Virus record (IMG/VR): IMGVR_UViG_2531839579_000009
Reading direction: 5' to 3' (one strand)
DNA length: 13,974 nt
DNA from: a virus
Taxonomy: Duplodnaviria > Heunggongvirae > Uroviricota > Caudoviricetes
Below, one piece after another: positions 1 through 13,974 of the stretch. The position numbers and the translations under genes were made by a program. Position 1 is the first letter of the stretch. Each line of letters starts with the position of its first letter. Under the pieces are notes generated by a model. That model did no database searches. It was not told where the DNA came from and was given only the letters and a program-made list of their open reading frames with translations.

Positions 1-1577
1 CGTGGAAAATTGTCCGTAAAGGCAGGCATCAAGTTCCTGCTCCGACATGCCTGCGGGCAAAGGCCACGAAAGGCCAGCTCTCCGAAAGCGCACGAACATA
101 CTACAAACTGTTGATTTTGGTACACCCAGGCGACGCCCGGCCACAACCCGGGGTAAATGTTCTTCAAAGTGAAGACGTAAAGCTTCAGTGATCCAGGTCC
201 GGTGTTTCATACGATAGTGTCCATTAAAAATGATGGACATTATTTTTGTAGAGCCGGAGGAAACAGACCAGACGGTTTAAATGAGCCGGTTACAAAGCCA
301 GTGAGGCGGCGTATCTACTTTGCCCGCACTGCAGCGGCATTATCACTGCGGAGAAAAAGCGTGAGCTCAATAGTGCAGGAGTCTGGTTGCGTGAAGGGCA
401 GGTCATTGATCGTAACGGCAACGTTTCCGGTGAACCGCGCCGCTCCCGTATCGCCAGTTTCTGGATGGAAGGGCCAGCTGCTGCGTATCAGACCTGGGCG
501 CAACTGGTTTACAAATTACTGACTGCAGAACAGGAGTATGAAGCGACAGGAAGCGAAGAAACACTCAGGGCGGTTATCAACACCGACTGGGGATTGCCTT
601 ATCTTCCTCGTGCCAGCATGGAGCAACGAAAAAGTGAATTGCTTGAGCAGCGGGCAGAGCCAGTTCCTTCCCGCAGTGTGCCGGATGGCGTTAATTTCCT
701 TGTGGCGACAGTGGATGTGCAGGCGGGACGTCATCGCCGTTTTGTGGTTCAGGTAACGGGCTATGGCAGCCGTGGCGAACGCTGGATTATTGATCGTTAC
801 AACATCACGCAGTCATTGCGCGGTGACAGCGACGGGGAGAGCCAGCGAATTGATCCGGCCAGCTATCCGGAAGACTGGGATGTCCTGCTGACGGATGTTT
901 TTCATAAAAGCTGGCCGCTGGCCTCCGATCCTTCTCAACAAATGCGACTGATGGCAATGGCGGTGGACTCCGGCGGTGAAGACGGGGTCACTGATAATGC
1001 CTATAAATTCTGGCGTCGTTGCCGTCGTGATGGCCTTGGTAAACGTATTTACCTGTTTAAGGGCGACAGCATCCGGCGCGCAAAACTGATCACCCGTACA
1101 TTCCCTGATAACACCGGACGAACGGGCCGACGGGCGCAGGCCGCAGGTGATGTGCCGCTCTGGCTTCTTCAGACGGATGCCCTGAAAGATCGGGTGAATA
1201 ACGCGTTATGGCGTGACTCGCCAGGTCCCGGCTATGTGCATTTCCCTGACTGGCTGGGGAGCTGGTTTTACGACGAACTGACGTATGAAGAGCGGAGCAG
1301 TGACGGGAAATGGAGTAAGCCGGGTCGCGGTGCCAACGAAGCTTTTGACCTGATGGTGTATGCCGAGGCTCTGGTCATTCTGCATGGATACGAAAAGATC
1401 CGCTGGCCGGATGCACCGGAGTGGGCGAGCCGGGAAACCTGGCTGGAGTGTGTCCCGGACAGTACCGAACCGTCACCCTCACCGGAACCGGTATCCACGC
1501 CTGTTAAAAAACAAAAACGGAAGAAAACAGTAACTGACGATGTTAACCCCTGGCTGACTTCCGGAGGATGGTTATGA
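1..1577 (+). CDS. A: Terminase large subunit (lambda gpA-like), 5'-partial at window edge. Intact frame only from about 286 to 1577; homologous upstream segments lie in other frames.
   Basis: ORF 387..1577 translation (…WLREGQVIDRNG…FLVATVDVQAGRHRRFVVQVTGYG…WIIDRYNI…) aligns with the C-terminal half of lambda gpA as I recall it. A CPHC motif is in the same frame at about 313-324, upstream of the first ATG. Frames 0 and 1 are both open in different parts of 1-300. Confidence 0.8.
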
Positions 1578-1786
1578 ACCAGAATGATATCGAAGCCATG
1601 ATTCAGCGTTATACGGAAGCTGAAATGGCGGTGCTGGACGGAAAATCCGTCACCTTTAATGGTCAGCAGATGACAATGGAAAACTTATCTGAGATCCGAC
1701 AGGGACGGCAGGAGTGGGAGCGCCGCCTTGCGGCTCTGATTACACGACGACGGGGGCATCCCGGGTACCGGCTGGCGAGGTTCTGA
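1574..1786 (+). CDS. W: Head-tail joining / head completion protein (lambda gpW-like)
   Basis: About 70 aa with a C-terminal RRRG motif as in lambda gpW (…QRRRGPAGFYV). GGAGGA at 1563-1568 lies 6 nt upstream of ATG 1574. The start overlaps the terminase stop (ATGA) and the stop overlaps the portal start (TGATG). Confidence 0.75.
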   Translation: MNQNDIEAMIQRYTEAEMAVLDGKSVTFNGQQMTMENLSEIRQGRQEWERRLAALITRRRGHPGYRLARF

Positions 1787-3292
1787 TGGCAATTCTTGAT
1801 GATGTGATTGGCGTTTTTTCACCAGGATGGAAAGCGGCAAGGCTGCGTTCCCGTGCGGTGATCCAGGCTTATGAGGCCGTAAAAACGACGCGGACACACA
1901 AAGCCCGACGGGAGAACAGAACTGCCGACCAGTTAAGCCAGTACGGGGCCGTGTCGTTACGTGAGCAGGCCCGTTACCTTGATAACAACCACGATCTGGT
2001 TATTGGTGTATTTGACAAGCTGGAAGAACGGGTGGTGGGGAAAAACGGGATTATTGTCGAGCCACATCCGGTATTACGCAATGGGGCCATTGCCCGTGAT
2101 CTGGCAGCGGAGATACGTACCCGATGGAGTGAATGGTCTGTCAGCCGGAGTCACCGGGCAGTTTACCCGTCCGATGCTGGAACGTCTGATGCTGCGTACC
2201 TGGCTGCGCGATGGTGAGGTGTTTGCCCAGATGGTTTCCGGGCGCATAAACAGCCTGACGCCTTCTGCCGGTGTTCATTTCTGGCTGGAGGCGCTCGAGC
2301 CGGACTTTATTCCCATGACCAGTGATGAGAGCAACAGGCTGAATCAGGGCGTGTTTGTTGATGACTGGGGGCGTCCCGAAAAATATCTGGTGTATAAAAG
2401 TCGTCCTGTATCCGGACGGCAGATGGAAACCAAAGAAGTGGATGCAGAGCGAATGCTGCATCTTAAATTTGTTCGCCGTCTGCACCAGATGCGCGGGACG
2501 TCTTTATTGTCCGGTGTGCTGATCCGCCTCAGCGCCCTGAAAGAGTATGAAGATTCTGAGCTGACTGCAGCAAGGGTCGCCGCTGCTCTGGGGATGTACA
2601 TCCGCAAAGGCGACGGACAGAGCTATGAAACGGATGGTAATTACAGCAAGGAGAAGGAACGCGAGCTTACCATTCAGCCAGGCATTATTTACGATGATCT
2701 GAAACCCGGCGAAGAAATCGGAATGGTGAAGTCGGATCGCCCCAATCCTAACCTTGAAACTTTTCGTAATGCTCAGTTGCGTGCCGTGGCGGCGGGCAGT
2801 CGTCTGAGTTTTTCCAGTACAGCGCGCAACTATAACGGCACTTACAGCGCCCAGCGTCAGGAGCTGGTTGAATCCACTGATGGCTACCTGATCCTGCAGG
2901 ACTGGTTTATTGGTGCCGTCACCCGCCCGATGTATCGTGCATGGCTGAAACAGGCTGTGGCATCCGGTGTTATCAGGCTACCCCGCGATCTTGACCGTTC
3001 TTCACTGTATACCGCGGTGTATTCCGGACCAGTGATGCCGTGGATTGACCCTGTTAAGGAGGCTGAGGCCTGGAAAATCCAGATTCGTGGTGGAGCGGCG
3101 ACAGAATCAGACTGGGTACGTGCTGGTGGTCGTAATCCGGATGATGTCAAACGTCGGCGCAAGGCCGAAATTGATGAAAACCGCAAGCTGGACCTAGTAT
3201 TTGATACCGATCCGGCCAGTGATAAAGGAGGCAGTAGTGCCGCAACGAAACGACAGGAGCCGCAGCACACCGACGACCAGTCCGAAGATTAA
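1786..3292 (+). pseudogene. Phage portal protein, reading frame broken near 2140-2155 in this sequence
   Basis: ORFs 1714..2217 (frame 1) and 1961..3292 (frame 2) together form one portal-sized protein of about 500 aa. The switch occurs within agccggagtcaccggg. Position directly after gpW and before the prohead protease fits a portal. Confidence 0.8.
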
Positions 3293-3305
3293 TTCCTGGT
3301 TCAGG

Positions 3306-5264
3306 ATGCAGGCTGGTCACCAGAGTGACGCGGATATTTATATTTATGACGAGATTGGTTTCTGGGGTGTTACAGCGAAGCAGTTTATCAGTGATCTGAA
3401 TGCACTGGGCGATATCACCCACATTAATCTCCATATTAATTCACCGGGTGGCGATGTCTTTGAAGGCATCGCCATTTTTAATGCGCTGAAAACACATGGT
3501 GCGTCCATTACCGTTTATGTCGACGGTGTGGCGGCGTCAATGGCGTCGGTCATTGCGATGGTGGGAAATCCGGTCATTATGCCGGAAAACACCTTCATGA
3601 TGATTCATAAACCATTTGGCTTTACGGGCGGTGATGCGGAGGACATGCGCACCTATGCCGACCTGCTCGATAAAGTTGAGGCGGTTCTGTTACCCGCTTA
3701 TGCACAGAAAACCGGGAAAACCACCGATGAAATTGCTGCCATGCTGGCGGATGAGACCTGGATGTCCGGTGCCGAATGTCTGGCACAGGGATTTGCTGAT
3801 CAGGTGACGCCAGCCGTTAAGGCAATGGCATGTATTCAGTCAAAACGTACAGAGGAATTTAAAAAGATGCCGGAATCCATTCGAAACATGATTACTCCGC
3901 CACGCAACAGTGCTCCACGCGTACAGGATGATGAACCTGCAGCCTCCCGGACGCCAGTGCAGGCAGCAGCACCCGTGGTGGATGAAAACAGTATCCGTGC
4001 GCAGGTACTGGCAGAGCAAAAAGCGCGTGTAAACGGTATTAATGATCTGTTTGCCATGTTTGGCGGGCGTTATCAGACGCTGCAGGCTCAGTGTCTTGCC
4101 GATCCTGAATGTTCGCTGGAACAGGCCCGCGAAAAGCTGTTGAACGAGATGGGGCGCGAGTCCACGCCATCCAATAAAAATACCCCGGCTCATATTTATG
4201 CCGGTAACGGTAATTTTGTGGGGGACGGGATCCGCCAGGCGCTGATGGCGCGTGCCGGATTTGAAAAAACCGAACGTGATAATGTCTACAACGGGATGAC
4301 CCTGCGTGAATATGCCCGTATGTCACTGACTGAACGGGGTATTGGGGTTTCCAGTTATAACCCGATGCAGATGGTCGGTGCGGCGTTCACACACAGTACG
4401 TCTGACTTCGGTAATATTCTGCTGGATGTTGCGAACAAAGCCATTCTGCAGGGCTGGGAAGATGCCCCTGAAACCTATGAACAGTGGACGCGGAAAGGTC
4501 AGTTGTCTGATTTTAAAATTGCCCATCGTGTGGGTATGGGGGGCTTCAGTGCTCTGCGTCAGGTGCGTGAAGGGGCGGAATATAAATACGTCACCACCGG
4601 AGATAAACAGGCCACTATTGCACTGGCGACCTATGGCGAGCTGTTCAGTATCACCCGTCAGGCCATTATCAATGATGATCTGAATATGCTGACCGATGTC
4701 CCGATGAAACTGGGCCGTGCGGCGAAATCCACTATTGCCGATCTGGTTTATGCCATTCTGACGTCTAACCCGAAAATCTCCACAGATAATGTAAGTCTGT
4801 TCGATAAAGCGAAACATGCAAACGTACTGGAGAGCGCTGCAATGGACGTGGCATCGCTGGATAAAGCCCGCCAGTTGATGCGCGTTCAGAAAGAGGGGGA
4901 GCGTCATCTGAATATTCGTCCTGCGTTCGTACTGGTACCGACGGCGATGGAGTCTGTTGCTAACCAGGTCATTCGCTCCTCAAGTGTCAAGGGGGCTGAC
5001 ATTAACGCCGGTATTATTAACCCGGTGAAAGATTTTGCGACCGTTATTGCAGAGCCTCGTCTTGATGATAACAGCCTGACCACCTTCTACCTGGCTGCGT
5101 CAAAAGGCTCCGATACGATTGAAGTGGCTTATCTCAACGGTGTGGATACGCCATATATTGATCAGATGGAGGGCTTCAGTGTGGATGGCGTGACAACGAA
5201 AGTGCGTATTGACGCCGGTGTCGCGCCAGTTGATCACCGCGGTCTGGTGAAATGTACGGCGTAA
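3306..5264 (+). CDS. Fused prohead protease (ClpP/S14-like) - linker/scaffold-like region - major capsid protein (Mu gpT-like), single 652-aa ORF
   Basis: The N-terminal ~170 aa (…INSPGGDVFEGIAIFNALK…VDGVAASMASVIAMVG…) looks like a ClpP-family serine protease core. The middle is a low-complexity Q/A/E-rich segment. The C-terminal ~350 aa resembles Mu-like major head subunits. ATG 3306 is in frame, just after the portal stop at 3290-3292. No internal stop. Confidence 0.8.
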   Translation: MQAGHQSDADIYIYDEIGFWGVTAKQFISDLNALGDITHINLHINSPGGDVFEGIAIFNALKTHGASITVYVDGVAASMASVIAMVGNPVIMPENTFMMIHKPFGFTGGDAEDMRTYADLLDKVEAVLLPAYAQKTGKTTDEIAAMLADETWMSGAECLAQGFADQVTPAVKAMACIQSKRTEEFKKMPESIRNMITPPRNSAPRVQDDEPAASRTPVQAAAPVVDENSIRAQVLAEQKARVNGINDLFAMFGGRYQTLQAQCLADPECSLEQAREKLLNEMGRESTPSNKNTPAHIYAGNGNFVGDGIRQALMARAGFEKTERDNVYNGMTLREYARMSLTERGIGVSSYNPMQMVGAAFTHSTSDFGNILLDVANKAILQGWEDAPETYEQWTRKGQLSDFKIAHRVGMGGFSALRQVREGAEYKYVTTGDKQATIALATYGELFSITRQAIINDDLNMLTDVPMKLGRAAKSTIADLVYAILTSNPKISTDNVSLFDKAKHANVLESAAMDVASLDKARQLMRVQKEGERHLNIRPAFVLVPTAMESVANQVIRSSSVKGADINAGIINPVKDFATVIAEPRLDDNSLTTFYLAASKGSDTIEVAYLNGVDTPYIDQMEGFSVDGVTTKVRIDAGVAPVDHRGLVKCTA

Positions 5265-5287
5265 ACGTCGCAGACAACAACTCTGAT

Positions 5288-5307
5288 GGCCCGTAAGGGC
5301 TTTTTTT
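5288..5307 (+). terminator. Rho-independent terminator-like hairpin after the capsid gene
   Basis: GGCCC-GTAA-GGGC stem with a GNRA tetraloop, followed by T7 (5301-5307), 24 nt downstream of the capsid stop at 5262-5264. Confidence 0.5.
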
Positions 5308-5318
5308 GTACCTGAAAT

Positions 5319-5337
5319 CAGCCCCTGAACGGGGCTG
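5319..5337 (+). promoter_or_regulatory. Perfect 7-bp stem-loop (CAGCCCC-TGAAC-GGGGCTG) immediately upstream of the RBS of the next gene
   Basis: Read directly from the sequence. It lies between the terminator-like hairpin and GGAG at 5341-5344. Confidence 0.4.
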
Positions 5338-5350
5338 TGCGGAGACAGTT

Positions 5351-5674
5351 ATGGCAAAGAATTTTGTAGAAGAAGGAAAAACGGTGGCGATTGTTGCCAG
5401 TGCAGCCATCAGCAGTGGAGATCTGGTGCAGGTGGGTGATGTTTTTGCGGTAGCGCTGACCGATATTCCACAGGGTGAAACAGGCGACGGCCTGACCGAA
5501 GGTGTGTTTATGCTGCCTAAGCTGAAAACGGATGACATGAAAACGGGTAAGAAGGTTTATCTGAAGTCCGGAAAAGTTCAGTTGACTAACAGCGGCTCTG
5601 ATCCGCTGGTCGGGGTTGTCTGGGCAGATGCCGGAACCAGTGCAGAAGAAGTGCCGGTAAAACTCAATGTCTGA
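5351..5674 (+). CDS. DUF2190-like small head protein (putative head decoration/cement protein)
   Basis: 107 aa starting MAKNFVEEGKTV…, which I recognise as typical of the DUF2190 family that follows ClpP/Mu-gpT-type capsid genes. GGAG sits 6 nt upstream of ATG 5351. ORF 5306..5674 has an earlier in-frame ATG but no RBS. Confidence 0.65.
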   Translation: MAKNFVEEGKTVAIVASAAISSGDLVQVGDVFAVALTDIPQGETGDGLTEGVFMLPKLKTDDMKTGKKVYLKSGKVQLTNSGSDPLVGVVWADAGTSAEEVPVKLNV

Positions 5675-5942
5675 TCCCTTTTCCCGGCTGGCAGCGCGTA
5701 TGGATGCGATCACGGTTAGAAAGATGGGAAAGACAGCCTCGATTAATGATGCCGATATGACTGTGATCCCGGGAGAAACACTGGCAGAGCTGAATGCTCT
5801 GTCCGGACCTGCGGTATCTCTGGTGGTGTTTTCTTCGGGATACCGCCCACGGCGCGGGGATCGCGTTGTTTATGACGGACAACAATGGACGGTCACACGG
5901 CATGAACGTTTTAACGGTAAGCCAATGATCTTTATTGAGTAA
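5667..5942 (+). CDS. FII: Head-tail attachment protein (lambda gpFII-like)
   Basis: 91 aa with a C-terminal …RRGDRVVYDGQQWTVTRHE… resembling the lambda gpFII RRGD region. Start overlaps the upstream stop (ATGTCTGA), suggesting translational coupling. Sits directly before gpZ as in lambda. Confidence 0.55.
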   Translation: MSDPFSRLAARMDAITVRKMGKTASINDADMTVIPGETLAELNALSGPAVSLVVFSSGYRPRRGDRVVYDGQQWTVTRHERFNGKPMIFIE

Positions 5943-5953
5943 AGAGGTGTGGG

Positions 5954-6535
5954 ATGAAGGGGCTTGAGAATGCTATCCGCAATCTGAACAGCCTTGATAC
6001 CCGTATGGTGCCACAGGCCAGCGCATGGGCGATAAACCGTGTGGCACAGAAAGCGGTCTCGGTCGCCACCCGGCAGGTTGCCGGGAATACCGTTGCGGGA
6101 GATAACCAGGTGAAAGGGATCCCCCTGAAACTGGTACGTCAGCGTGTCCGGGTGTTTAAAGCCAGTCCGTCAGGAAAAATGACGGCCAGGATCCGCGTTA
6201 ACCGGGGCAATCTGCCCACCATCAAGCTGGGGACAGCCCGGGTCAGACTGGCCCGGCGTGGTGGAAAACTGCAGTACCGTGGCAGTATTCAGCAACTGGC
6301 GAATGGCCGCTGGCATGTTCTGAGGCGTCTTCCTGAAGCGCGTTTTGCAACAGGGCATGTGATGCGGCGTATTGATGGCAAAAATCGTTACCCCATTGAT
6401 GTGGTGAAAGTCCCGCTGTCCGGACCGCTGACACAAGCATTTGAAGATGCCCGCGACCGCATTATTGCTGCGGAAATGCCGAAACAGCTGGGGTATGCAC
6501 TGAAACAACAACTGAGGTTATGGCTGACCCGATGA
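5954..6535 (+). CDS. Z: Minor tail protein Z (tail completion)
   Basis: 193 aa. MKGLENAIRNLNSL…NGRWHV…KNRYPIDVVK…LGYAL…QLR matches lambda gpZ (192 aa) along its length. AGAGG sits 6 nt upstream. Confidence 0.9.
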   Translation: MKGLENAIRNLNSLDTRMVPQASAWAINRVAQKAVSVATRQVAGNTVAGDNQVKGIPLKLVRQRVRVFKASPSGKMTARIRVNRGNLPTIKLGTARVRLARRGGKLQYRGSIQQLANGRWHVLRRLPEARFATGHVMRRIDGKNRYPIDVVKVPLSGPLTQAFEDARDRIIAAEMPKQLGYALKQQLRLWLTR

Positions 6536-6931
6536 ACCGACATACACAAATCCGCCAGGCCGTACTGGCACGCCTTCGGAACAGTGTGGAGACAGCGCCA
6601 CGTTTTTTGACGGGCTTCCGGCATTTTTGATGCGCAGGAACTGCCTGCCGTGGCGGTGTGGCTGAGTGATGCTCAGTACACCGGAAAAATGACGGATGAA
6701 GATGACTGGCAGGCTGTTCTGCATATTGCTGTCTTCATCCGGGCACAGGCACCGGATTCAGAGCTGGATATGTGGATGGAGAGCACCATTTTCCCGGCTC
6801 TGAATGATATACCGGCACTTTCCGGACTCATCGACACCCTGATCCCTCTCGGTTTTAACTATCAACGTGATAATGAGATGGCCACCTGGGCGATGGCGGA
6901 AATCACGTACCAGATCACGTACACGAATTAA
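6532..6931 (+). pseudogene. U: Tail terminator protein U, frame broken twice (about 6600 and 6626) in this sequence
   Basis: N-terminus MNRHTQIRQAVLARL… is in frame 1 to 6600, TFFDGLPAF in frame 0 (6600-6626), and FDAQELPAVAVWLSDAQYTG…DSELDMWMES…ITYQITY in frame 2 to the stop at 6929-6931. Each piece matches lambda gpU. The second break is in a T5 run. Confidence 0.85.
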
Positions 6932-6941
6932 GGAGGTGGTA

Positions 6942-7681
6942 ATGACCACACCAAATCCACTGGCAAAAACGAAAGGTGCGGGAACGACGTTCTGGATGTA
7001 ACCGGCAAGGCGATGCGTTTGCGAACCCTTTTCGGACACTGACTGGTGCGTCTTGCGATGGTGAAGGATCTGCAACCTGGCGAAATGACCGCTGATGCAG
7101 AAGATGACACTTATCTCGATGATGAAGATGCAGACTGGAAAACGACAACCCAGGGGCAGAAATCCGTCGGTGATACTTCGGCGACGCTGGCCTGGCGTCC
7201 GGGGGACAGCGGGCAGAAAAAACTGGTTCAGTTGTTCGACTCCGGTGAAGTCTGCGCGTTTCGTATCAAATATCCCAACGGTACTGTTGATGTTTTCCGT
7301 GGCTGGCTGAGTTCACTGGGTAAAACCATTGCCTCAAAAGACGTGATGACCCGCACCGTGAAAATCAGCGGTGTGGGGCGTCCGTATCTGGCAGAGGAAG
7401 GCACTGAAACCGTGGGCGTTACCGGGCTGACGGTGGCACCGGCATCTGCCAGTGTAAAAGTGGGAGCAACCACCACGCTGACCTTTACAGTAAAACCTGA
7501 CGGAGCCAGTGACAAAGCGATCAGTGTGCATTCGACAGATCCACAGACTGCCACGGTGACCCTGAACGGGCTTGTGGCCACGGTGAAAGGCGTGAAGCAG
7601 GGCAGTGTCAGCATTGTGGGCATGACTTCTGACGGCGATTTTGTGGCCGTGGCTGCGGTGGCTGTCAGCGCCGCAGGTTAA
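6942..7681 (+). pseudogene. V: Major tail tube protein V with C-terminal Ig-like domain; four frame breaks within 6998-7049
   Basis: AGGAGG at 6931-6936, ATG 6942. MTTPNPLAKTKGAGTTFWM runs into a stop at 6999. Homology to lambda gpV then continues in frame 2, frame 1, frame 0 and back to frame 2 from 7049 to the stop at 7679-7681. Confidence 0.85.
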
Positions 7682-7701
7682 CAGGACGATACTCATCATT
7701 T

Positions 7702-7725
7702 GCCCCGGTTATCCGGGGCTTTTTT
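7702..7725 (+). terminator. Rho-independent terminator after gene V
   Basis: GCCCCGG-TTAT-CCGGGGC (7-bp GC-rich stem) followed by T6, 21 nt after the V stop. Confidence 0.7.
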
Positions 7726-7741
7726 GCAGGTGGAGAACATG

Positions 7742-8128
7742 ATGTTTCTGAAACAGGGCTCGTTTAATTATGAAAAGCAGTCCGTGGTGCTCAGTGAGCT
7801 GTCCGGGCTGCAGAGAATTGAATATCTGGCGTTTGTTCAGCAGCGAACGGCAAAGTTTGATGCCGAAGAGGGAGAACTGCCGGAGGCTGAACGACAGATT
7901 GCTTTTCTGCGGATGGGGATGGATATCAATGCCTGGCTGGTTTCCCGCTCACTGTGGAATGCGGATCAGTCTAAGGATGTAGAGACGCTTTGCGCATCCG
8001 TTATTACAACATGGTCGTATGATGCCCTGGGTGCGGGGGCGGAGATGGTTCTGTCGCTGAGCGGTATGGGGGCCATTGATAATGCCGGGGATGATGAGCA
8101 TGAGGCGCTGACGCCGGAAAAGTCCTGA
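7742..8128 (+). CDS. G: Tail assembly chaperone G
   Basis: MFLKQGSFNYEKQSVVLSELSGLQRIEYLA… matches the lambda gpG N-terminus (MFLKTESFEHNGVTVTLSELSALQRIEHLA…). GGAG sits 6 nt upstream of ATG 7742. Stop at 8126-8128. Confidence 0.85.
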   Translation: MFLKQGSFNYEKQSVVLSELSGLQRIEYLAFVQQRTAKFDAEEGELPEAERQIAFLRMGMDINAWLVSRSLWNADQSKDVETLCASVITTWSYDALGAGAEMVLSLSGMGAIDNAGDDEHEALTPEKS

Positions 8129-8465
8129 CGCGGGAAATGCAGTTTGTCATGCGGCTTGCCCGGGAGTTCCGGCGGGCAGACTGGCGGCGGATGCTGTCGG
8201 AAATGTCGGCCACTGAGCTTGGTGAGTGGGGCGATTATTTCCGGATGCAGAGCTTCAGTGATGTGTGGATGGATGCGCAGTTTGCCTCGCTGAAGGCATT
8301 GATCGTGAGAATGGTGTCCGGCAGCAGTGATGCTGCGGTGGCTGATTTCAGCCTTTTACCGGAAGAGAACGGGATACCGGAGCGAACGGACGAAGAACTG
8401 ATGCATCTTGGGAAGGTATTTCCGGAGGTGTGCGTTATGGACCAGATAGCCAACCTGGTCATTGA
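8104..8465 (+). CDS. T: gpT segment of the G-T tail assembly chaperone (expressed only as a G-T fusion by -1 frameshift). 3' end uncertain: as written the frame reads through into H.
   Basis: The -1 frame relative to G encodes …REFRRADWRRMLSEMSATELGEWGDYFRMQSFSD…, which I recognise as gpT-like. There is no stop in this frame before 9615. A plausible gpT C-terminus (…GGVRYGPD… with stop at 8463-8465) is in another frame from about 8410. Confidence 0.5.
8116..8122 (+). promoter_or_regulatory. Candidate -1 programmed ribosomal frameshift site (G GAA AAG) for the G-T fusion
   Basis: Heptamer in the G frame 4 nt before the G stop. The -1 frame is open from 8104 and encodes a gpT-like sequence. 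Lambda uses G GGA AAG at the equivalent place. Confidence 0.5.
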
Positions 8466-11400
8466 TTTGGGGATTGATGCGGCAGAGTTTAAAAATGAAA
8501 TTCCCCGTATCAAAAACCTTCTGAATGGTGCCGCCAGCGATGCAGAACGGTCTTCTGCCCGTATGCAGCGTTTTATGGAGCGTCAGACTCAGGCCGCCCG
8601 GCAGACAACGCAGGCGGCTTCTTCGGCTGCAACAGCCGCCTCCGTCCATGCGCAGACGGTGGAGAAGAACGCACAGGCTCATGAACGCATGGCCCGCGAG
8701 GTGGAGAAAACCCGCCAGCGCATGGAGGCGCTGAGCCAGAAAATGCGCGATGAACAGGCGCAGGCCATGGCTCTGGCGGAGGCTCAGGATAAAGCGGCTG
8801 CTGCGTTTTATCGTCAGATTGACAGTGTGAAACAGGCCAGTGCGGGGCTGCAGGAATTACAGCGTATTCAGCAGCAGATCCGACAGGCCAGAAACAGTGG
8901 CGGGATTGGTCAGCAGGATTATCTGGCGCTGATTTCTGAGGTTACGGCGAAAACCCGTGTTCTTACACAGGCTGAGGAAGAGGCTACCCGACAGAAAGTG
9001 GCGTTTATCCGTCAGCTTAAAGAGCAGGCAACCCGCCAGAATCTTTCTTCTTCTGAGTTGCTTCGTGCTAAGGCTGCCCAGCTGGGGGTAAGCAGTGCTG
9101 CAGAAGTGTATATCCGCAAAATGGAGCAGGCAGGAAAAGCCACGCATTCGCTGGGTCTGAAAAGTGCAGCGGCCCGTCAGGAGATAGGCGTTCTGATAGG
9201 TGAACTGGCCCGCGGCAATTTAGGTGCGCTGAGGGGATCCGGAATAACGCTGGCTAACCGTGCCGGGTGGATAGACACATTGATGTCACCGAAAGGCATG
9301 ATGCTTGGCGGGGTTATTGGCGGTATTGCCGCGGCTGTCTATGGTCTGGGTAAAGCCTGGTATGACGGTCAGAAGGAGGGGGAAGAATTTAACCGCCAGC
9401 TGTCGCTGACGGGGCATTATGCCGGAGTCACTGCCGGGCAGCTGTGGACGCTCAGTCGTGCTATTTCCGGGAATGGTATCACGCAACATGCTGCAGCCGG
9501 TGCGCTGGCTCAGGTGGTGGGGAGTGGTGCATTTCGTGGAAACGATATCGGTATGGTGGCGAGAGTGCCGCACAGATGGAGCGATCGGTTGGCCAGTCGG
9601 TCAGCGATACCATAAGTCAGTTTAAGCGGCTGAAGGATGATCCTGTAAATGCCGCGAAGGCTCTGGACAATGAGCTGCATTTTCTTACTGCCACTCAGCT
9701 TGAGCAGATACGCGTCCTTGGGGAGCAGGGGCGGTCCAGTGATGCTGCACGGATAGCCATGTCTGCACTGGCAGAGGAAACCGGTCGGCGTACTGCGGAT
9801 ATTGATAATAACCTCAATGCGCTTGGCAGTACGCTGAAGTATCTGTCTGATTTGTGGAGTCGTTTCTGGGATGCGGCCATGAATATTGGTCGTGAAGACT
9901 CGCTGGATGAACAGATTGCCGCTTTACAGGAGAAAGTGTCGCGGGCGAAAAGACTCCCCTGGACGGCATCATCTTCTCAGGTTGAATACGATCAGCAGCG
10001 TCTTAACGATCTTCAGGAGAAAAAACGCCAGAAGGATTTGCAGGATGCAAAAGAGCAGGCAGAGCGGAATTATCAGGAGCAACAGAAACGCCGTAATGCT
10101 GAAAATGCTGCACTGAACCGGATGAATGAAACGGAAGCAGCACGACATCAGCGTGAAATTGCGCGTATTAATGCCATGCAGTACGCCGATCAGGCTGTCA
10201 GGGATGCGGCGATACAACGTGAAAATGAACGTTACGAGAAAGCCCTGGCATCCGGTAAGAAAAAAACACGCGAAACCCGTAATGATGAGGCCACCCGGTT
10301 ATTGCTGCAGTACAGTCAGCAACAGGCACAGGTGGAAGGACAGATTGCTGCTGCAGACAGTCAGCAGGCATTGCCACTGACAGGATGACAGAAGCGCATA
10401 AACAGCTTCTGGCTCTGCAGCAGCGCATCAGCGACCTGGACGGGAAAAAACTGACGGCAGATGAAAAGAGTGTGCTGGCCCGTAAAGATGAACTGATTCA
10501 GGCACTGACGCTGCTGGATGTAAAACAGCAGGAGCTTCAGAAACAGACGGCACTCAACGATCTGAAGAAAAAAACAATTCAGCTGACCAGTCAACTGGCT
10601 GAAGAAGAGCGCGCTCAGCGTCAGCAACATGACCTGGATATCGCCACGGTGGGTATGGGTGATCAGCAGCGGCAGCGATATCAGGTACAACTGAGTCTTC
10701 GCCAGAAATACCAGCAACAGCTGGAGCAGTTGAGGCGGGATAGTGAGCAGAAAGGAACATATAACACGGATGACTACAGAAAGGCCGAGCAGGCGCTGAC
10801 GGAGAGCCTGAACCGACAACTGAATGAGAATCGCCGTTACTGGCAACAGCTTGAAGTTGCTCAGGGTGACTGGAAAAACGGAGTCCTGCGTGCACTCCAG
10901 AATGTCACTGAGGAAGCGGATAACACGGCAGAAACAGCAGAACAGGTGTTCTCGTCAGCCTTCAGCAACATGGGAAATGGCCTGGCAACTTTTGTCACTA
11001 CCGGCAAACTCAATTTCAAATCCTTCACCTCTTCTGTGCTGTCAGATATGGCGAAAATCCTGGCGCAGATAGCTTTAATGAAAGCGGTAAAAGGTATTGC
11101 TTCCGCGCTGCCTTTTGATCTTGTAGCCAATGCTGATGGCGGTGTTTATCAGTCGGCTGATTTGAGTCGCTACAGTGGCACGGTGGTTAACCGTCCGACG
11201 TTTTTTGCTTTTGCAAAAGGCGCGGGTGTGATGGGGGAAGCGGGACCTGAAGCCATTCTGCCATTGCGTCGTGGTGCTGACGGTAAGCTGGGGGTTGTGG
11301 CGGATATTGGGGGTTCAGGTATGGCGATGTTTGCCCCGCAGTACAACATCGAGATCAATAACGATGGCACGAACGGGCAGATAGGTCCGGCTGCCCTGAA

Positions 11401-11491
11401 GGCGGTTTATGACCTCGGGAAAAAAGCGGCAGCGGACTTTATGCAACAGCAGGCCCGTGATGGTGGTCGGTTAAGTGGAGCATATCGGTAA
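8437..11491 (+). pseudogene. H: Tail tape measure protein H (about 1018 aa) with two frame breaks (about 9560 and 10384)
   Basis: Start MDQIANLVIDLGIDAAEFK matches the lambda gpH N-terminus. Three consecutive ORFs (8137..9615, 9444..10388, 10385..11491) in frames 1, 0 and 2 each continue the homology. C-terminus …NNDGTNGQIGPAALKAVYDLGKKAAADFMQQQARDGGRLSGAYR matches the lambda gpH end. Confidence 0.85.
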
Positions 11492-11820
11492 TGGAGACGT
11501 TTCACTGGAAAGTGCGCCCGGATATGAATGTGGTATCAGAGCCGAAAGTGGTGACAGTGAAGCTGGGCGATGGTTATGAACAGCGTCGTGCGGCGGGACT
11601 GAATAACCAGTTGTCGACTTACAGCGTGACGATACGTGTTCGTAAATGTGACCACCCATCTTTAAAAGCCTTTCTGGAACGGCACGGTGGCGTCCGTGCA
11701 TTTCAGTGGACGCCACCTTATGACTGGAAACCGATCAGGGTGGTTTGTCGTAAATGGTCGGCAAGCGTGGGGGCGCTGTGGGTAACCATAACGGCAGATT
11801 TTGAACAGGTCGTGGCATAG
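11491..11820 (+). CDS. M: Minor tail protein M
   Basis: 109 aa. METFHWKVRPDMNV…GDGYEQRRAAGLN…TYSV…FLERHGG…WTPPYDW…FEQVV matches lambda gpM (109 aa) end to end. Start overlaps the H stop (TAATG). Confidence 0.9.
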   Translation: METFHWKVRPDMNVVSEPKVVTVKLGDGYEQRRAAGLNNQLSTYSVTIRVRKCDHPSLKAFLERHGGVRAFQWTPPYDWKPIRVVCRKWSASVGALWVTITADFEQVVA

Positions 11821-11829
11821 GAGGCTCTG

Positions 11830-12495
11830 ATGCAGGATATTCCACAGGAAACACATCATGAGACGACACGCCTCACTCAGTCAGCCCAGGTGGTGCTCTG
11901 GGAAATCGATCTGACAGAGGTCGGTGGTGAACGTTATTTTTTCTGTAATGAGCAGAACGAAAAAGGTGAGCCGGTCACCTGGCAGGGGCGGCAGTATCAG
12001 GCATACCCCATTCAGGGGACGGGATTTGAACTGAACGGAAGGGCAGTGCTCCGCCACCTGACGGTTCTAACCTGACGGATGGTCACCGGGATGGCGGAAG
12101 ACTGCAGAGTCTGGTCGGCGGAACGGTGGTCGGCGTAAGGTTTACGCCCGTTTTCTGGATGCGGTGAACTTCGTCAACGGAAACAGAGCCGATCCGGAGC
12201 AGGAGGTGATCAGCCGCTGGCGCATGAGCAGTGAGCGAACTGAGGCGGTAGTGCCTCTTTGTCTTCCACCCGACGAAACGGATGGGCTGTTTTTCCGGGC
12301 GATCATGCTGGCCAACACCTGCACCTGGACCTATCGCGGGAGAGTGCGGTTATCGGTCCGGCGTCGCGGATGAATATGACCAGCCACGTCCGATATCACG
12401 AAGGATAAATGCAGCAAATGCCTGAGGGCTGTAAGTTTCGCAATAACGTCGGCAACTTTGGCGGCTTCCTTTCCATTAACAAACTTTCGCAGTAA
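11830..12495 (+). pseudogene. L: Minor tail protein L, multiply frame-broken between about 12039 and 12430
   Basis: AGGAGG sits 5 nt upstream. The first 69 aa (MQDI…VVLWEIDLTEVGGERYFFCNEQNEKGEPVTWQGRQYQ…ELNG) are near-identical to lambda gpL. After 12039, exact lambda-like peptides appear in alternating frames, ending in-frame with …GFLSINKLSQ and a stop at 12493-12495. Confidence 0.85.
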
Positions 12496-12499
12496 TCCC

Positions 12500-13226
12500 A
12501 TGACAAGACAGAATCAGCGATTCTGGCGCACGCCCGGCGATGTGCGCCAGCGGAGTCGTGCGGCTTCGTGGTGAGAACGCCGGAGGGGAAAGATATTTTC
12601 CCTGCGTGAATATCTCCGGTGAGCCGGAGGCGTATTTCCGGATGTCGCCGGAGGACTGGCTGCAGGCAGAATGCAGGGTGAGATTGTGGCGCTGGTCCAC
12701 AGCCACCCCGGTGGTCTGCCCTGGCTGAGTGAGGCGACCGGCGGCTGCAGGTGCAGAGTGATTTGCCGTGGTGGCTGGTCTGCCGGGGGCGATTCATAAT
12801 TCCGCTGTGTGCCGCATCTCACCGGGCGGCGCTTTGAGCACGGGGTGACGGACTGTTACACGCTGTTCCGGGAGCTTACATCTGGCGGGATTGAGATGCC
12901 GGATTTTCATCGCGGGGATACTGGTGGCGTCACGGTCAGAATCTCTATCTGGATAATCTGGAGGCCACAGGGCTGTATCAGGTGCCGTTGTCAGCGGCGC
13001 AGCCGGGCGATGTGCTGCTGTGCTGTTTTGGTTCATCGGTGCCGAATCATGCCGCCATTTACTGGGGACGGGAGCTGCTGCACCATATTCCTGAACAACT
13101 GAGAAACGAGAGAGGTATACCGACAAATGGCAGCGACGCACACACTCCCTCTGGCGTCACCGGGATGGCACGCATCTGCCTTTACGGGGATTTCAACGAT
13201 TTGGCCGCCGCATCGACCTTCGGTGA
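12500..13226 (+). pseudogene. K: Tail tip assembly protein K (JAMM/MPN plus NlpC/P60-type domains), multiply frame-broken
   Basis: MTRQNQRFWR… start. Lambda gpK-like peptides (CGFVVR; GGERYFPCVNIS…EAYFRMSPEDWLQAE; EIVALVHSHPGGLPWLSEA; DRRLQVQSDLPWWLVCRG; PHLTGRRFEHGVTDCYTLFR; GIEMPDFHR; NLYLDNLEATGLYQVPLSAAQPGDVLLCCFGSSVPNHAAIY…ELLHHIPEQL) are spread over all three frames. Confidence 0.8.
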
Positions 13227-13764
13227 AAACGGGGCGAAGCCATCCGGGCGCTGGCCATGCAGTCCCGGCGTTTCGTCAGAACTGAGCGACGGCTGGTATC
13301 AGGTACGCATTGCCGGGCGTGATGCAGGTGAAACCGAATTGTCTGCCCGTCTTAATGAGCCGCTGGCAAATGGTGCCGTGATCCAATCGTGCCGCGTCTG
13401 GCGGGAGCTAAAAGTGGCGGTGTGTTTCAGGTGGTGCTGGGGGCGGCGTTGATTGCGGTGGCATGGTGGAACCCTGTGGGCTGGCTGGGTGCCGCGGCTG
13501 TATCGGGCATGTATGCGGCAGGGGCCAGTATGATCCTGGGCGGGTGGCGCAGATGCTGGCACCGAAAGCCAGGACGCCACGGCAGCCAGTACAGATAACG
13601 GCAAACAGAACACCTATTTTTCCTCACTGGATAACATGGTTGCTCAGGGCAATGTTTTGCCTGTTCTGTACGGGGAAATGCGTGTGGGGTCGCGGGTGGT
13701 TTCTCAGGAGATCAGCACGGCAGACGAAGGGGACGGTGGTCAGGTTGTGGTGATTGGTCGCTGA
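13127..13764 (+). pseudogene. I: Tail tip assembly protein I, multiply frame-broken; overlaps the 3' end of K
   Basis: MAATHTLPLASPG start. MARICLYGD, QRFGRRIDLR, VKTG…PAFRQ, LSDGWYQVRIAGRD, AGAKSGGVFQVVLGAA, VAQMLAPKARTPR and DNGKQNTYFSSLDNMVAQGNVLPVLYGEMRVGSRVVSQEISTADEGDGGQVVVIGR match lambda gpI but in alternating frames. Stop at 13762-13764. Confidence 0.8.
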
Positions 13765-13782
13765 TGCAAAATGTTTTATGTG

Positions 13783-13806
13783 AAACCGCCTCCGGGCGGT
13801 TTTATC
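13783..13806 (+). terminator. Hairpin (AAACCGCC-TCCG-GGCGGTTT) followed by a T-run in the I-J intergenic region; terminator-like or attenuating structure
   Basis: 8-bp stem read from the sequence, followed by TTTTATCGTTT. Lies between the I stop (13764) and the J start (13825). Confidence 0.4.
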
Positions 13807-13824
13807 GTTTATGGAGCATGACGA

Positions 13825-13974
13825 ATGGGTAAAGGCAGCAGTAAGGGGCATACCCCGCGCGAAGCAAAGGACAACCTGAAGTCCACGCAGTTGCTGAGTG
13901 TGATCGATGCCATCAGCGAAGGGCCGGTTGAAGGTCCGGTGGATGGATTAAAAAGCGTGCTGCTGAACAGAACG
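13825..13974 (+). CDS. J: Tail tip / host specificity protein J, N-terminal 50 codons only (3'-partial, runs off the window)
   Basis: MGKGSSKGHTPREAKDNLKSTQLLSVIDAISEGPVEGPVDGLKSVLLN is essentially identical to the lambda gpJ N-terminus as I recall it. GGAG sits 8 nt upstream. Confidence 0.9.
   Translation, partial: MGKGSSKGHTPREAKDNLKSTQLLSVIDAISEGPVEGPVDGLKSVLLNRT

Follow-up and report, generated by a model that had tools for sequence, protein, structure and literature searches.

Single-base frame breaks in a lambdoid prophage late operon as a probable product of collapsed paralogous prophages

The late operon of a lambdoid prophage carried on a 13,974-nt stretch of DNA (hereafter the window, analysed at its full length) is interrupted by many clustered single-base frame breaks. 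These raise the question of whether the prophage is a cryptic element in decay or whether its genes were broken only on paper, during assembly. An initial annotation of the bare sequence had leaned towards assembly errors in segments repeated among co-resident lambdoid prophages, and had kept decay as the alternative.

Source and gene content of the contig

The window is the complete draft contig AQBU01000050.1 (13,974 bp; assembly GCA_000358575.2) of the ETEC isolate E. coli p0305293.11, a 2013 draft obtained by Illumina HiSeq sequencing and Celera Assembler. For this project, PMC4462620 gives HiSeq2000 paired-end reads, Celera Assembler and >200x coverage. The contig is bounded by repeats: its 5' end lies 293 bp inside ISCro1, and its 3' end lies 150 nt into J in sequence common to lambdoid prophages. 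The deposited record itself carries the breaks, with the depositor proteins ENG52084.1, ENG52085.1 and ENG52097.1 corresponding to broken fragments.

The window carries a lambdoid prophage late operon of the phage cdtI/mEp460 kind (Table 1). Phage cdtI matches 98% of the window at 97.5% nucleotide identity, with consistent annotation and colinear gene order, and the succession of terminase, portal, protease-capsid fusion, Z, U, V, G, T, H, M, L, K, I and J is that of cdtI/mEp460-type late operons. Unlike those phages, the window has a terminase cut by ISCro1, and its frame breaks are absent both from cdtI/mEp460-type phage genomes and from complete-genome prophages. Phage homology begins at position 294, directly after the ISCro1 part. 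In strain 120899, whose complete genome is among several from ETEC that match the window from its first base, this IS junction carries the annotation of a partial terminase, and it recurs in other contigs of the locus. The ISCro1 insertion in the terminase gene is the only real lesion of the window. The indels of the mosaic patch in Z sum to -9, so the frame of Z is kept. A lambda-type slippery site (GGGAAAG) was sought at the G/T junction, and none was found there.

Table 1 Features of the window, with deletions placed after the position given.
Feature	Coordinates	Strand	Remarks
ISCro1 (IS66-family) end, including 5' part of tnpA	1..293	-	Identical to 1501-1793 of the 120899 copy (L001), where tnpA is annotated
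Large terminase gene, 3' part	297..1577	+	Cut by IS insertion
Small hypothetical head gene	1574..1786	+	Intact
Portal gene	1786..3292	+	Split by two 1-bp deletions (2144, 2149)
ClpP-like prohead protease / major capsid fusion gene	3237..5264	+	Intact
Two small head genes (DUF2190/Phage_cement_2; Gifsy-2-like)	5351..5942	+	Intact
Z-like minor tail gene	5954..6535	+	Open; natural mosaic patch ~6225-6410
U gene	6532..6931	+	Broken by 1-bp deletions (6579, 6626)
Major tail gene V	6942..7681	+	Four 1-bp deletions (7000, 7008, 7031, 7046)
G gene	7742-8128	+	
T gene	8137-8465	+	-1 frame relative to G, like references; 1-bp deletion (8411) fuses T to H
Tape measure gene H	8437..11491	+	1-bp deletions (9565, 10354); mosaic patch ~10840-11150
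M gene	11491..11820	+	Intact
L gene	11830..12495	+	33 deleted bases, 1 substitution
K gene (C40 peptidase)	12500..13226	+	17 deleted bases, 3 within I overlap
I gene	13127..13764	+	10 deleted bases, 3 common to K
J gene	13825..13974	+	First 150 nt only

Spectrum and placement of the deletions

Indels were called from a gap-friendly pairwise alignment of the window with L001, the closest complete-genome copy (E. coli 120899). This replaced a default MAFFT alignment, which fused adjacent 1-bp gaps into 5-17-bp gaps accompanied by false runs of substitutions. The two mosaic patches (6225-6410 and 10840-11150) were left out because the gap-friendly alignment makes spurious indels there. The window is colinear with the L001 operon and shorter only through small deletions; it lacks 68 bases outside the patches, in 64 deletion events, 60 of 1 bp and four of 2 bp, and has no insertions there. 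The L-K-I segment holds 53 of these events (57 bases, from 12038 to 13576), a number put far too low by an earlier estimate of about twenty. Clustering is far above chance, since 57 of the 68 deleted bases fall within 1.54 kb, or 11% of the window. The four deletions previously noticed within 50 bp of V were recovered inside 47 bp, and three stretches thought to be intact were confirmed, with no frame-breaking indel in 294-2143, 2150-6578 (apart from the in-frame Z patch) or 10355-12037.

The initial annotation had described the typical lesion as one missing base, often in a short homopolymer, and suggested that it could come from a long-read assembly in which homopolymer indels persisted because the polishing short reads could not be assigned within repeats. 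The single missing base was right and the homopolymer was not: 46 of the 57 bases deleted from L-K-I (81%) have no identical neighbour, against 56% of background positions. The breaks are indeed concentrated where sequence recurs among lambdoid prophages, and the window resembles 454 or nanopore data in that single-base indels split genes in a deposited assembly. However, 454 and nanopore errors fall in homopolymer runs and at any codon position, whereas those of the window avoid runs and sit at wobble and variant sites, for which random indels would show no preference. Moreover, the window is a 14-kb draft contig between repeats, and the platform named in PMC4462620 is Illumina HiSeq with Celera Assembler. 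We therefore hold a long-read origin to be extremely unlikely.

Substitutions are rare where deletions are dense, L differing from L001 by 33 deleted bases and only one substitution. Alignment to the closest intact prophage had been expected to yield homopolymer contractions with few substitutions under an error hypothesis, and many substitutions under real decay; the scarcity of substitutions was observed and the homopolymer contractions were not.

The deletions coincide with natural differences between alleles. Within L-K-I, 52 of the 57 deleted bases lie on sites that vary among eight natural homologues, compared with 17% of sites overall. Counted as events in three parts of the window, 2 of 2, 11 of 12 and 43 of 53 deletions are at variant sites (binomial p = 4e-3, 3e-10 and 3e-21, respectively), and codon position 3 accounts for 38 of 50 unambiguous deletions (76%; p = 8e-10). 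In V, the L001 allele and a second natural allele (L009) are distinguished over 170 nt by exactly four bases, and precisely these four are missing from the window. Where L001 and another homologue (L012) differ at 68 sites in L-K-I, the window has a deletion at 37, the L012 base at 17 and the L001 base at 14. A hypothetical second copy of L-K-I, built from the alternative alleles, finds its best natural match at only 98.0%, so that no single known allele accounts for all the gaps. Judged from these alleles, the L-K-I mixture probably involves more than two copies.

This placement also bears on random sequencing errors in a region of low coverage. Errors of that kind might cluster towards one end of a contig, as the breaks do here. 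Yet the coverage reported in PMC4462620 exceeds 200x, the breaks are restricted to wobble and variant sites, and neither insertions nor random substitutions accompany them, which leaves random error with almost no credibility.

The locus in other assemblies and in complete genomes

We compared the window with nine contigs of the IS-truncated locus; these come from seven other assemblies, of which five bear p0305293.x names. Their sets of frame breaks differ from that of the window, as do their checkerboards of two haplotypes, and each break lying upstream of L-K-I is at odds with one or more of the nine. At the 68 bases deleted from the window, the first four of these contigs together show 59 deleted bases, 65 L001 alleles and 41 other alleles. 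The portal gene is intact in all seven other contigs covering it, with both alleles present at the window's two gap sites, and U is open wherever it was assembled, again with both alleles at the window's gap sites. In all six other contigs that span T, it reads as a normal ORF of 109 aa. H is intact (1018 aa) in p0305293.12 and broken at other places in other contigs.

In five contigs of the locus we counted 110 base-versus-base differences over 11.25 kb, 102 of which are natural variant sites against a background of 5.1%. Each of the five is a distinct two-haplotype checkerboard with 9-33 switches. From PMC4462620, which for non-clonal isolates names two other patients, we infer that the P0305293 isolates are clonal and come from one patient. 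Given this clonality, different assemblies of one clone do not reproduce each other's errors.

The V gaps are more uniform. All four are common to five of the seven contigs covering V, which suggests more reproducibility than purely stochastic error would give. Some deletions, most likely these four, could have been made in the cell by heteroduplex processing during recombination between diverged prophages of the one host, with mismatches excised rather than corrected. We know of no mechanism by which heteroduplex excision produces such deletions, and V is intact in p0305293.5 and carries only two of the four gaps in p0305293.12. A cellular origin for any of the deletions seems exceedingly improbable.

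The window is matched at 12 places in strain 120899, which shares the IS junction, including six for L-K-I and three for the V segment; the late genes of this strain are all intact apart from the truncated terminase. The deletions were found in no complete E. coli genome searched. The best complete-genome matches reach 96.2% for L-K-I and 97.6% for V, where the shortfall is made up of the four gaps, and a 71-mer spanning the V gaps had no exact match in GTDB representatives, IMG/VR or JGI metagenomes. In a search with the alternative V allele for a second copy, strain 120899 was not among the matches listed.

These comparisons also bear on genuine decay, the alternative offered by the initial annotation, in which a cryptic prophage gathers real frameshifts after inactivation. 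Defective lambdoid prophages of E. coli, such as Rac and DLP12 of K-12 and the Sp prophages of O157 Sakai, resemble the window in carrying IS elements in morphogenesis genes and tail modules shared with co-resident prophages. Because ISCro1 has truly cut the terminase, as seen also in 120899 and in further contigs of this locus, the late genes could be under weaker selection, and the sharing of the V gaps would fit inherited lesions. Real prophage decay, however, leaves clonal relatives with shared IS elements, sizeable deletions and mutations of mixed type, not 1-bp wobble-site deletions that differ between sibling isolates. It should leave a mixed spectrum with more substitutions than indels and no preference for a codon position, whereas the window has only deletions, 76% of them at codon position 3 and about 90% at sites of natural allelic variation. 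Lesions should also be inherited by clonal relatives, but only the IS insertion is common to them; at identical sites, isolates of one patient's clone have a deletion, one allele or the other. Each gene broken upstream of L-K-I has an intact version in the contigs of other assemblies, and 120899 keeps intact late genes behind an equal IS junction. Decay thus appears very improbable as the source of the frame breaks.

A probable consensus of collapsed prophage copies

On the strength of these sequence comparisons, we consider it very likely that the frame breaks are artefacts and that the contig is a chimera, a consensus into which paralogous prophage copies have collapsed, rather than a biological sequence. 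We hypothesize that the p0305293 clone, and by extension p0305293.11, carries at least two co-resident cdtI/mEp460-like late regions differing by ~1% across head and tail genes, and that additional copies of the lambdoid L-K-I module exist, ~3-7% apart. Celera Assembler would have stacked short Illumina reads from all copies into one contig. Where copies agree, the sequence would be correct; where they differ, the consensus would take one allele or write no base. Allele picks would generate the haplotype checkerboard, and absent bases the frame-breaking 1-bp deletions. We infer the software step that makes a gap from a mixed column. Three elements of the account were observed directly, namely deletions at paralog-variant sites, their irreproducibility between assemblies of the clone, and contig ends in repeats. 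The core of the initial annotation, its link between assembly errors and segments repeated among co-resident lambdoid prophages, stands, although its long-read scenario does not.

A related possibility places the same artefact at another last step, with ambiguity codes (IUPAC letters or N) written at mixed positions and stripped later. Stripping would cost exactly one base per heterogeneous column, add none and ignore homopolymers, all of which matches the data. Against it, a plain allele is called at many mixed sites, and Celera Assembler is not known to us to write ambiguity codes. Since the depositor's proteins already fit the shortened sequence, any stripping must have preceded deposit. 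We regard this variant as very unlikely, and favour gaps arising in the consensus of collapsed copies.

Draft genomes with collapsed repeats and paralogous sequence variants share much with the window: a repeat-bounded contig, probably merged from multiple copies, alleles interleaved, and errors exactly at copy-distinguishing positions that vary between independent assemblies. Such collapses usually show a wrong or switching base, whereas a large share of the mixed columns of the window would have become 1-bp deletions that mimic pseudogenes. The frame breaks are almost certainly not a real feature, and their relevance lies mainly in data quality. A set of indels made up of deletions alone, lying outside homopolymers, at wobble sites and at paralogue-variable sites, would provide a cheap, read-free test for a collapsed-repeat consensus, the joint signature separating it from decay or platform error. 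Such contigs would mislead any count of "degraded prophages" or pseudogenes across this set of about 200 ETEC drafts. This contig and those of the other assemblies contribute dozens of false pseudogenes and fragment proteins that are now in protein databases, some of the fragments with WP_ and UniRef entries.

Source of the window and the terminase lesion

BLAST searches against phage and complete E. coli genomes identify the window as a lambdoid late operon, with 97.5% identity to phage cdtI over 98% of its length, about 97% to mEp460, and 98.2% (gaps counted) to a prophage found in several complete ETEC genomes, e.g., strain 120899. In reference annotation the gene order is large terminase, small ORF, portal, and a ClpP-like protease/major capsid fusion, followed by two small head genes, Z, U, V, G, T, H, M, L, K, I, and J. 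By exact protein matching, the window constitutes the entire contig AQBU01000050.1 (13,974 bp; draft assembly GCA_000358575.2), which the depositor's protein names assign to E. coli p0305293.11; isolate P0305293.1 was recovered in Bangladesh in 2011 from cholera-like diarrhoea (PMC4309559). Sequencing relied on Illumina HiSeq2000 paired-end libraries and Celera Assembler at >200x coverage, with contigs of at least 500 bp (PMC4462620), so the long-read platform supposed in the initial annotation was wrong.

Window positions 1-293 are the terminal part of an ISCro1 (IS66-family) element that truncates the large terminase gene (lesion at 1-296). The junction is exactly that of strain 120899, where it is annotated in the complete genome, and it occurs in the other contigs of the locus. 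Strain 120899 is one of several GEMS-type ETEC genomes that match the window from base 1. The insertion is a real, inherited lesion of the terminase gene, and because of this truncation one copy of the prophage is probably unable to package DNA. The late genes downstream are all annotated as intact in 120899.

Deletions at allele-variant sites

Default global alignment to L001, the operon copy in the 120899 prophage, yielded 201 substitutions and one 12-bp insertion and opened 53 gaps in the window; the mismatch runs flanking neighbouring gaps looked suspicious. A gap-friendly alignment resolved these runs as isolated single-base gaps. Outside two mosaic patches, 6225-6410 (Z) and 10840-11150 (H, tape measure), which were left out of the count, the window carries 64 deletion events totalling 68 bases (60 of 1 bp and four of 2 bp) and no insertions. 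The patches are substitution-dense, with a natural allele other than that of L001 partly common to cdtI or to contig L009 (APZZ01000035.1), and represent either mosaicism of the usual lambdoid kind or a switch of allele between the collapsed copies.

Deletions in the window relative to L001, by gap-friendly alignment
Gene	Window position	Extent
Portal	2144, 2149	
U	6579, 6626	
V	7000, 7008, 7031, 7046	
T	8411	
H	9565, 10354	
L-K-I	12038-13576	53 events; bases lost: L 33, K 14, K/I overlap 3, I 7

Stretches read as intact from the sequence alone were also intact in this alignment, and the four deletions noticed within 50 bp of V are real, while the estimate of about twenty breaks in L-K-I was too low by more than half. 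The breaks are part of the public record, in which ENG52084.1 and ENG52085.1 are two fragments of the portal and ENG52097.1 is an 81-aa stump of L. Gene T is in the -1 frame relative to G (window 8110-8140), the arrangement expected where lambda-like tails use a programmed G/GT frameshift. The junction of the two genes reads CCGGAAAAGTCCTGA and does not contain lambda's slippery heptamer GGGAAAG.

Forty-six of the 57 bases deleted in L-K-I have no identical neighbour, compared with 56% of background positions, and the initial impression of homopolymer contractions was therefore mistaken. Sites variable among eight homologues hold 52/57 of these bases, and only 17% of sites vary. Counted by event against five full-length references, with the window in three parts, deletions fell at variant sites in 2/2, 11/12, and 43/53 cases (binomial p = 4e-3, 3e-10, and 3e-21). 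Third codon positions were hit in 38 of 50 unambiguously placed deletions (p = 8e-10), a result independent of the reference panel. The deletions are thus neither homopolymer errors nor random.

The V cluster is the clearest case of gaps at allele-variant bases. Here L001 and the common allele in L009 have exactly four differences in 170 nt (T/C, C/G, G/A, T/C), and the window lacks exactly those four bases and is otherwise identical to both alleles. In L-K-I, the natural allele L012 (strain 025542-1, Bangladesh) differs from L001 at 68 sites; at these the window has a deletion in 37 cases, the L012 base in 17, and the L001 base in 14. The remaining L-K-I gaps lie where lambda-type alleles differ, suggesting that more than two copies were probably mixed there. 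The scarcity of substitutions anticipated for sequencing error was borne out in gene L, where 33 deleted bases accompany one substitution, the opposite of what mutational decay produces.

Replicate contigs of the locus

Nine additional contigs, drawn from seven other assemblies, carry the same locus; six of these assemblies have neighbouring accession prefixes. Depositor names directly confirm p0305293.3,.5,.6, and.12, and names place.8,.10,.13, and.15 in the same set. Populations were clonal in 10 of 12 multi-isolate patients, the exceptions being P0299917 and P0299438 (PMC4462620), from which we infer clonality of the P0305293 isolates.

Break positions differ among these contigs. All seven other contigs that cover the portal have it intact, U and T are open wherever another contig covers them, and H, broken at variable points, is whole in p0305293.12 (1018 aa). 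Only in assembly AQBZ are M (L019 8213-8541) and the protease-capsid gene (L019 472-1974) broken, both intact in the window. V is intact in p0305293.5 and has only two of the four gaps in p0305293.12; all four are common to 5/7 contigs covering V, plausibly a deterministic outcome for tightly clustered variants within one read length. Across the first four other contigs, the window's 68 deleted bases are deleted in 59 instances, present as the L001 allele in 65, and present as the other allele in 41. Clonal isolates that show three states at a single site cannot owe them to inheritance, and real prophage decay is very unlikely.

Five contigs, including the window, show base-versus-base disagreement at 110 sites in 11.25 kb, 102 of which vary among natural homologues (5.1% background). 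When the sites are coded as L001 or other allele, every contig gives its own checkerboard, with 9-33 switches. This pattern is the signature of two ~1%-divergent copies that were merged into a single path. Upstream of window position 929 the five contigs show no discordant site. This agrees with the alternative terminase allele being strongly divergent in the first 640 bp; the copies are distinguishable there and collapse only in sequence further on.

Repeat copies and a probable collapsed consensus

Among complete genomes sharing the IS junction, the closest is 120899; it contains 12 places that match the whole window, six that match L-K-I, and three that match the V segment. Of 5,426 complete E. 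coli genomes, 4,407 contain L-K-I-like sequence, at a median of three places per genome. None of these genomes carries the window's deletions (best L-K-I identity 96.2%; best V-segment identity 97.6%, corresponding to the four gaps), and exact search for a 71-mer across the V gaps found no match in GTDB representatives, IMG/VR, or JGI metagenomes.

The gaps occupy paralog-variant columns and differ from one assembly of the clone to the next, and the contig spans repeat to repeat. Reads from at least two prophage copies would have been placed in one layout, with the consensus at mixed columns picking an allele or emitting a gap. It is highly improbable that ambiguity letters were instead stripped before deposit, leaving the gaps, and the verdict would be the same: the frame breaks are an assembly artefact without new biology. 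The initial observation was largely right, including the idea of errors in segments repeated among prophages, and failed in its platform and homopolymer details. The artefact is useful as a caution on this set of draft genomes, whose fragment proteins are now in reference sets (WP_024253947.1, WP_001669497.1, WP_001503589.1, and their UniRef entries), and as a read-free test for collapsed-repeat consensus errors.

Breaks in other genes and recurring stumps indicate that the artefact recurs across the project. L009 (GCA_000357485.2, another assembly apparently from the same project) has terminase and L-K-I intact, and small deletions (AAT and A) within the mosaic patch split its Z gene (8828-9414), apparently an artefact of this kind too. 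Z is in three pieces in p0305293.12 (L024 5754-6334) and intact in the window. The annotation of E. coli 2747800 likewise contains the 57-aa M stump, and both p0305293.13 and p0305293.6 have an annotated L stump of 78 aa. The 207-aa V fragment (P0212; p0305293.10 and.12) is also recorded from a different source (Logan/ENA), on a contig of 3.24 Mb; this could reflect a shorter gene call, or an unrelated assembly with a comparable break.
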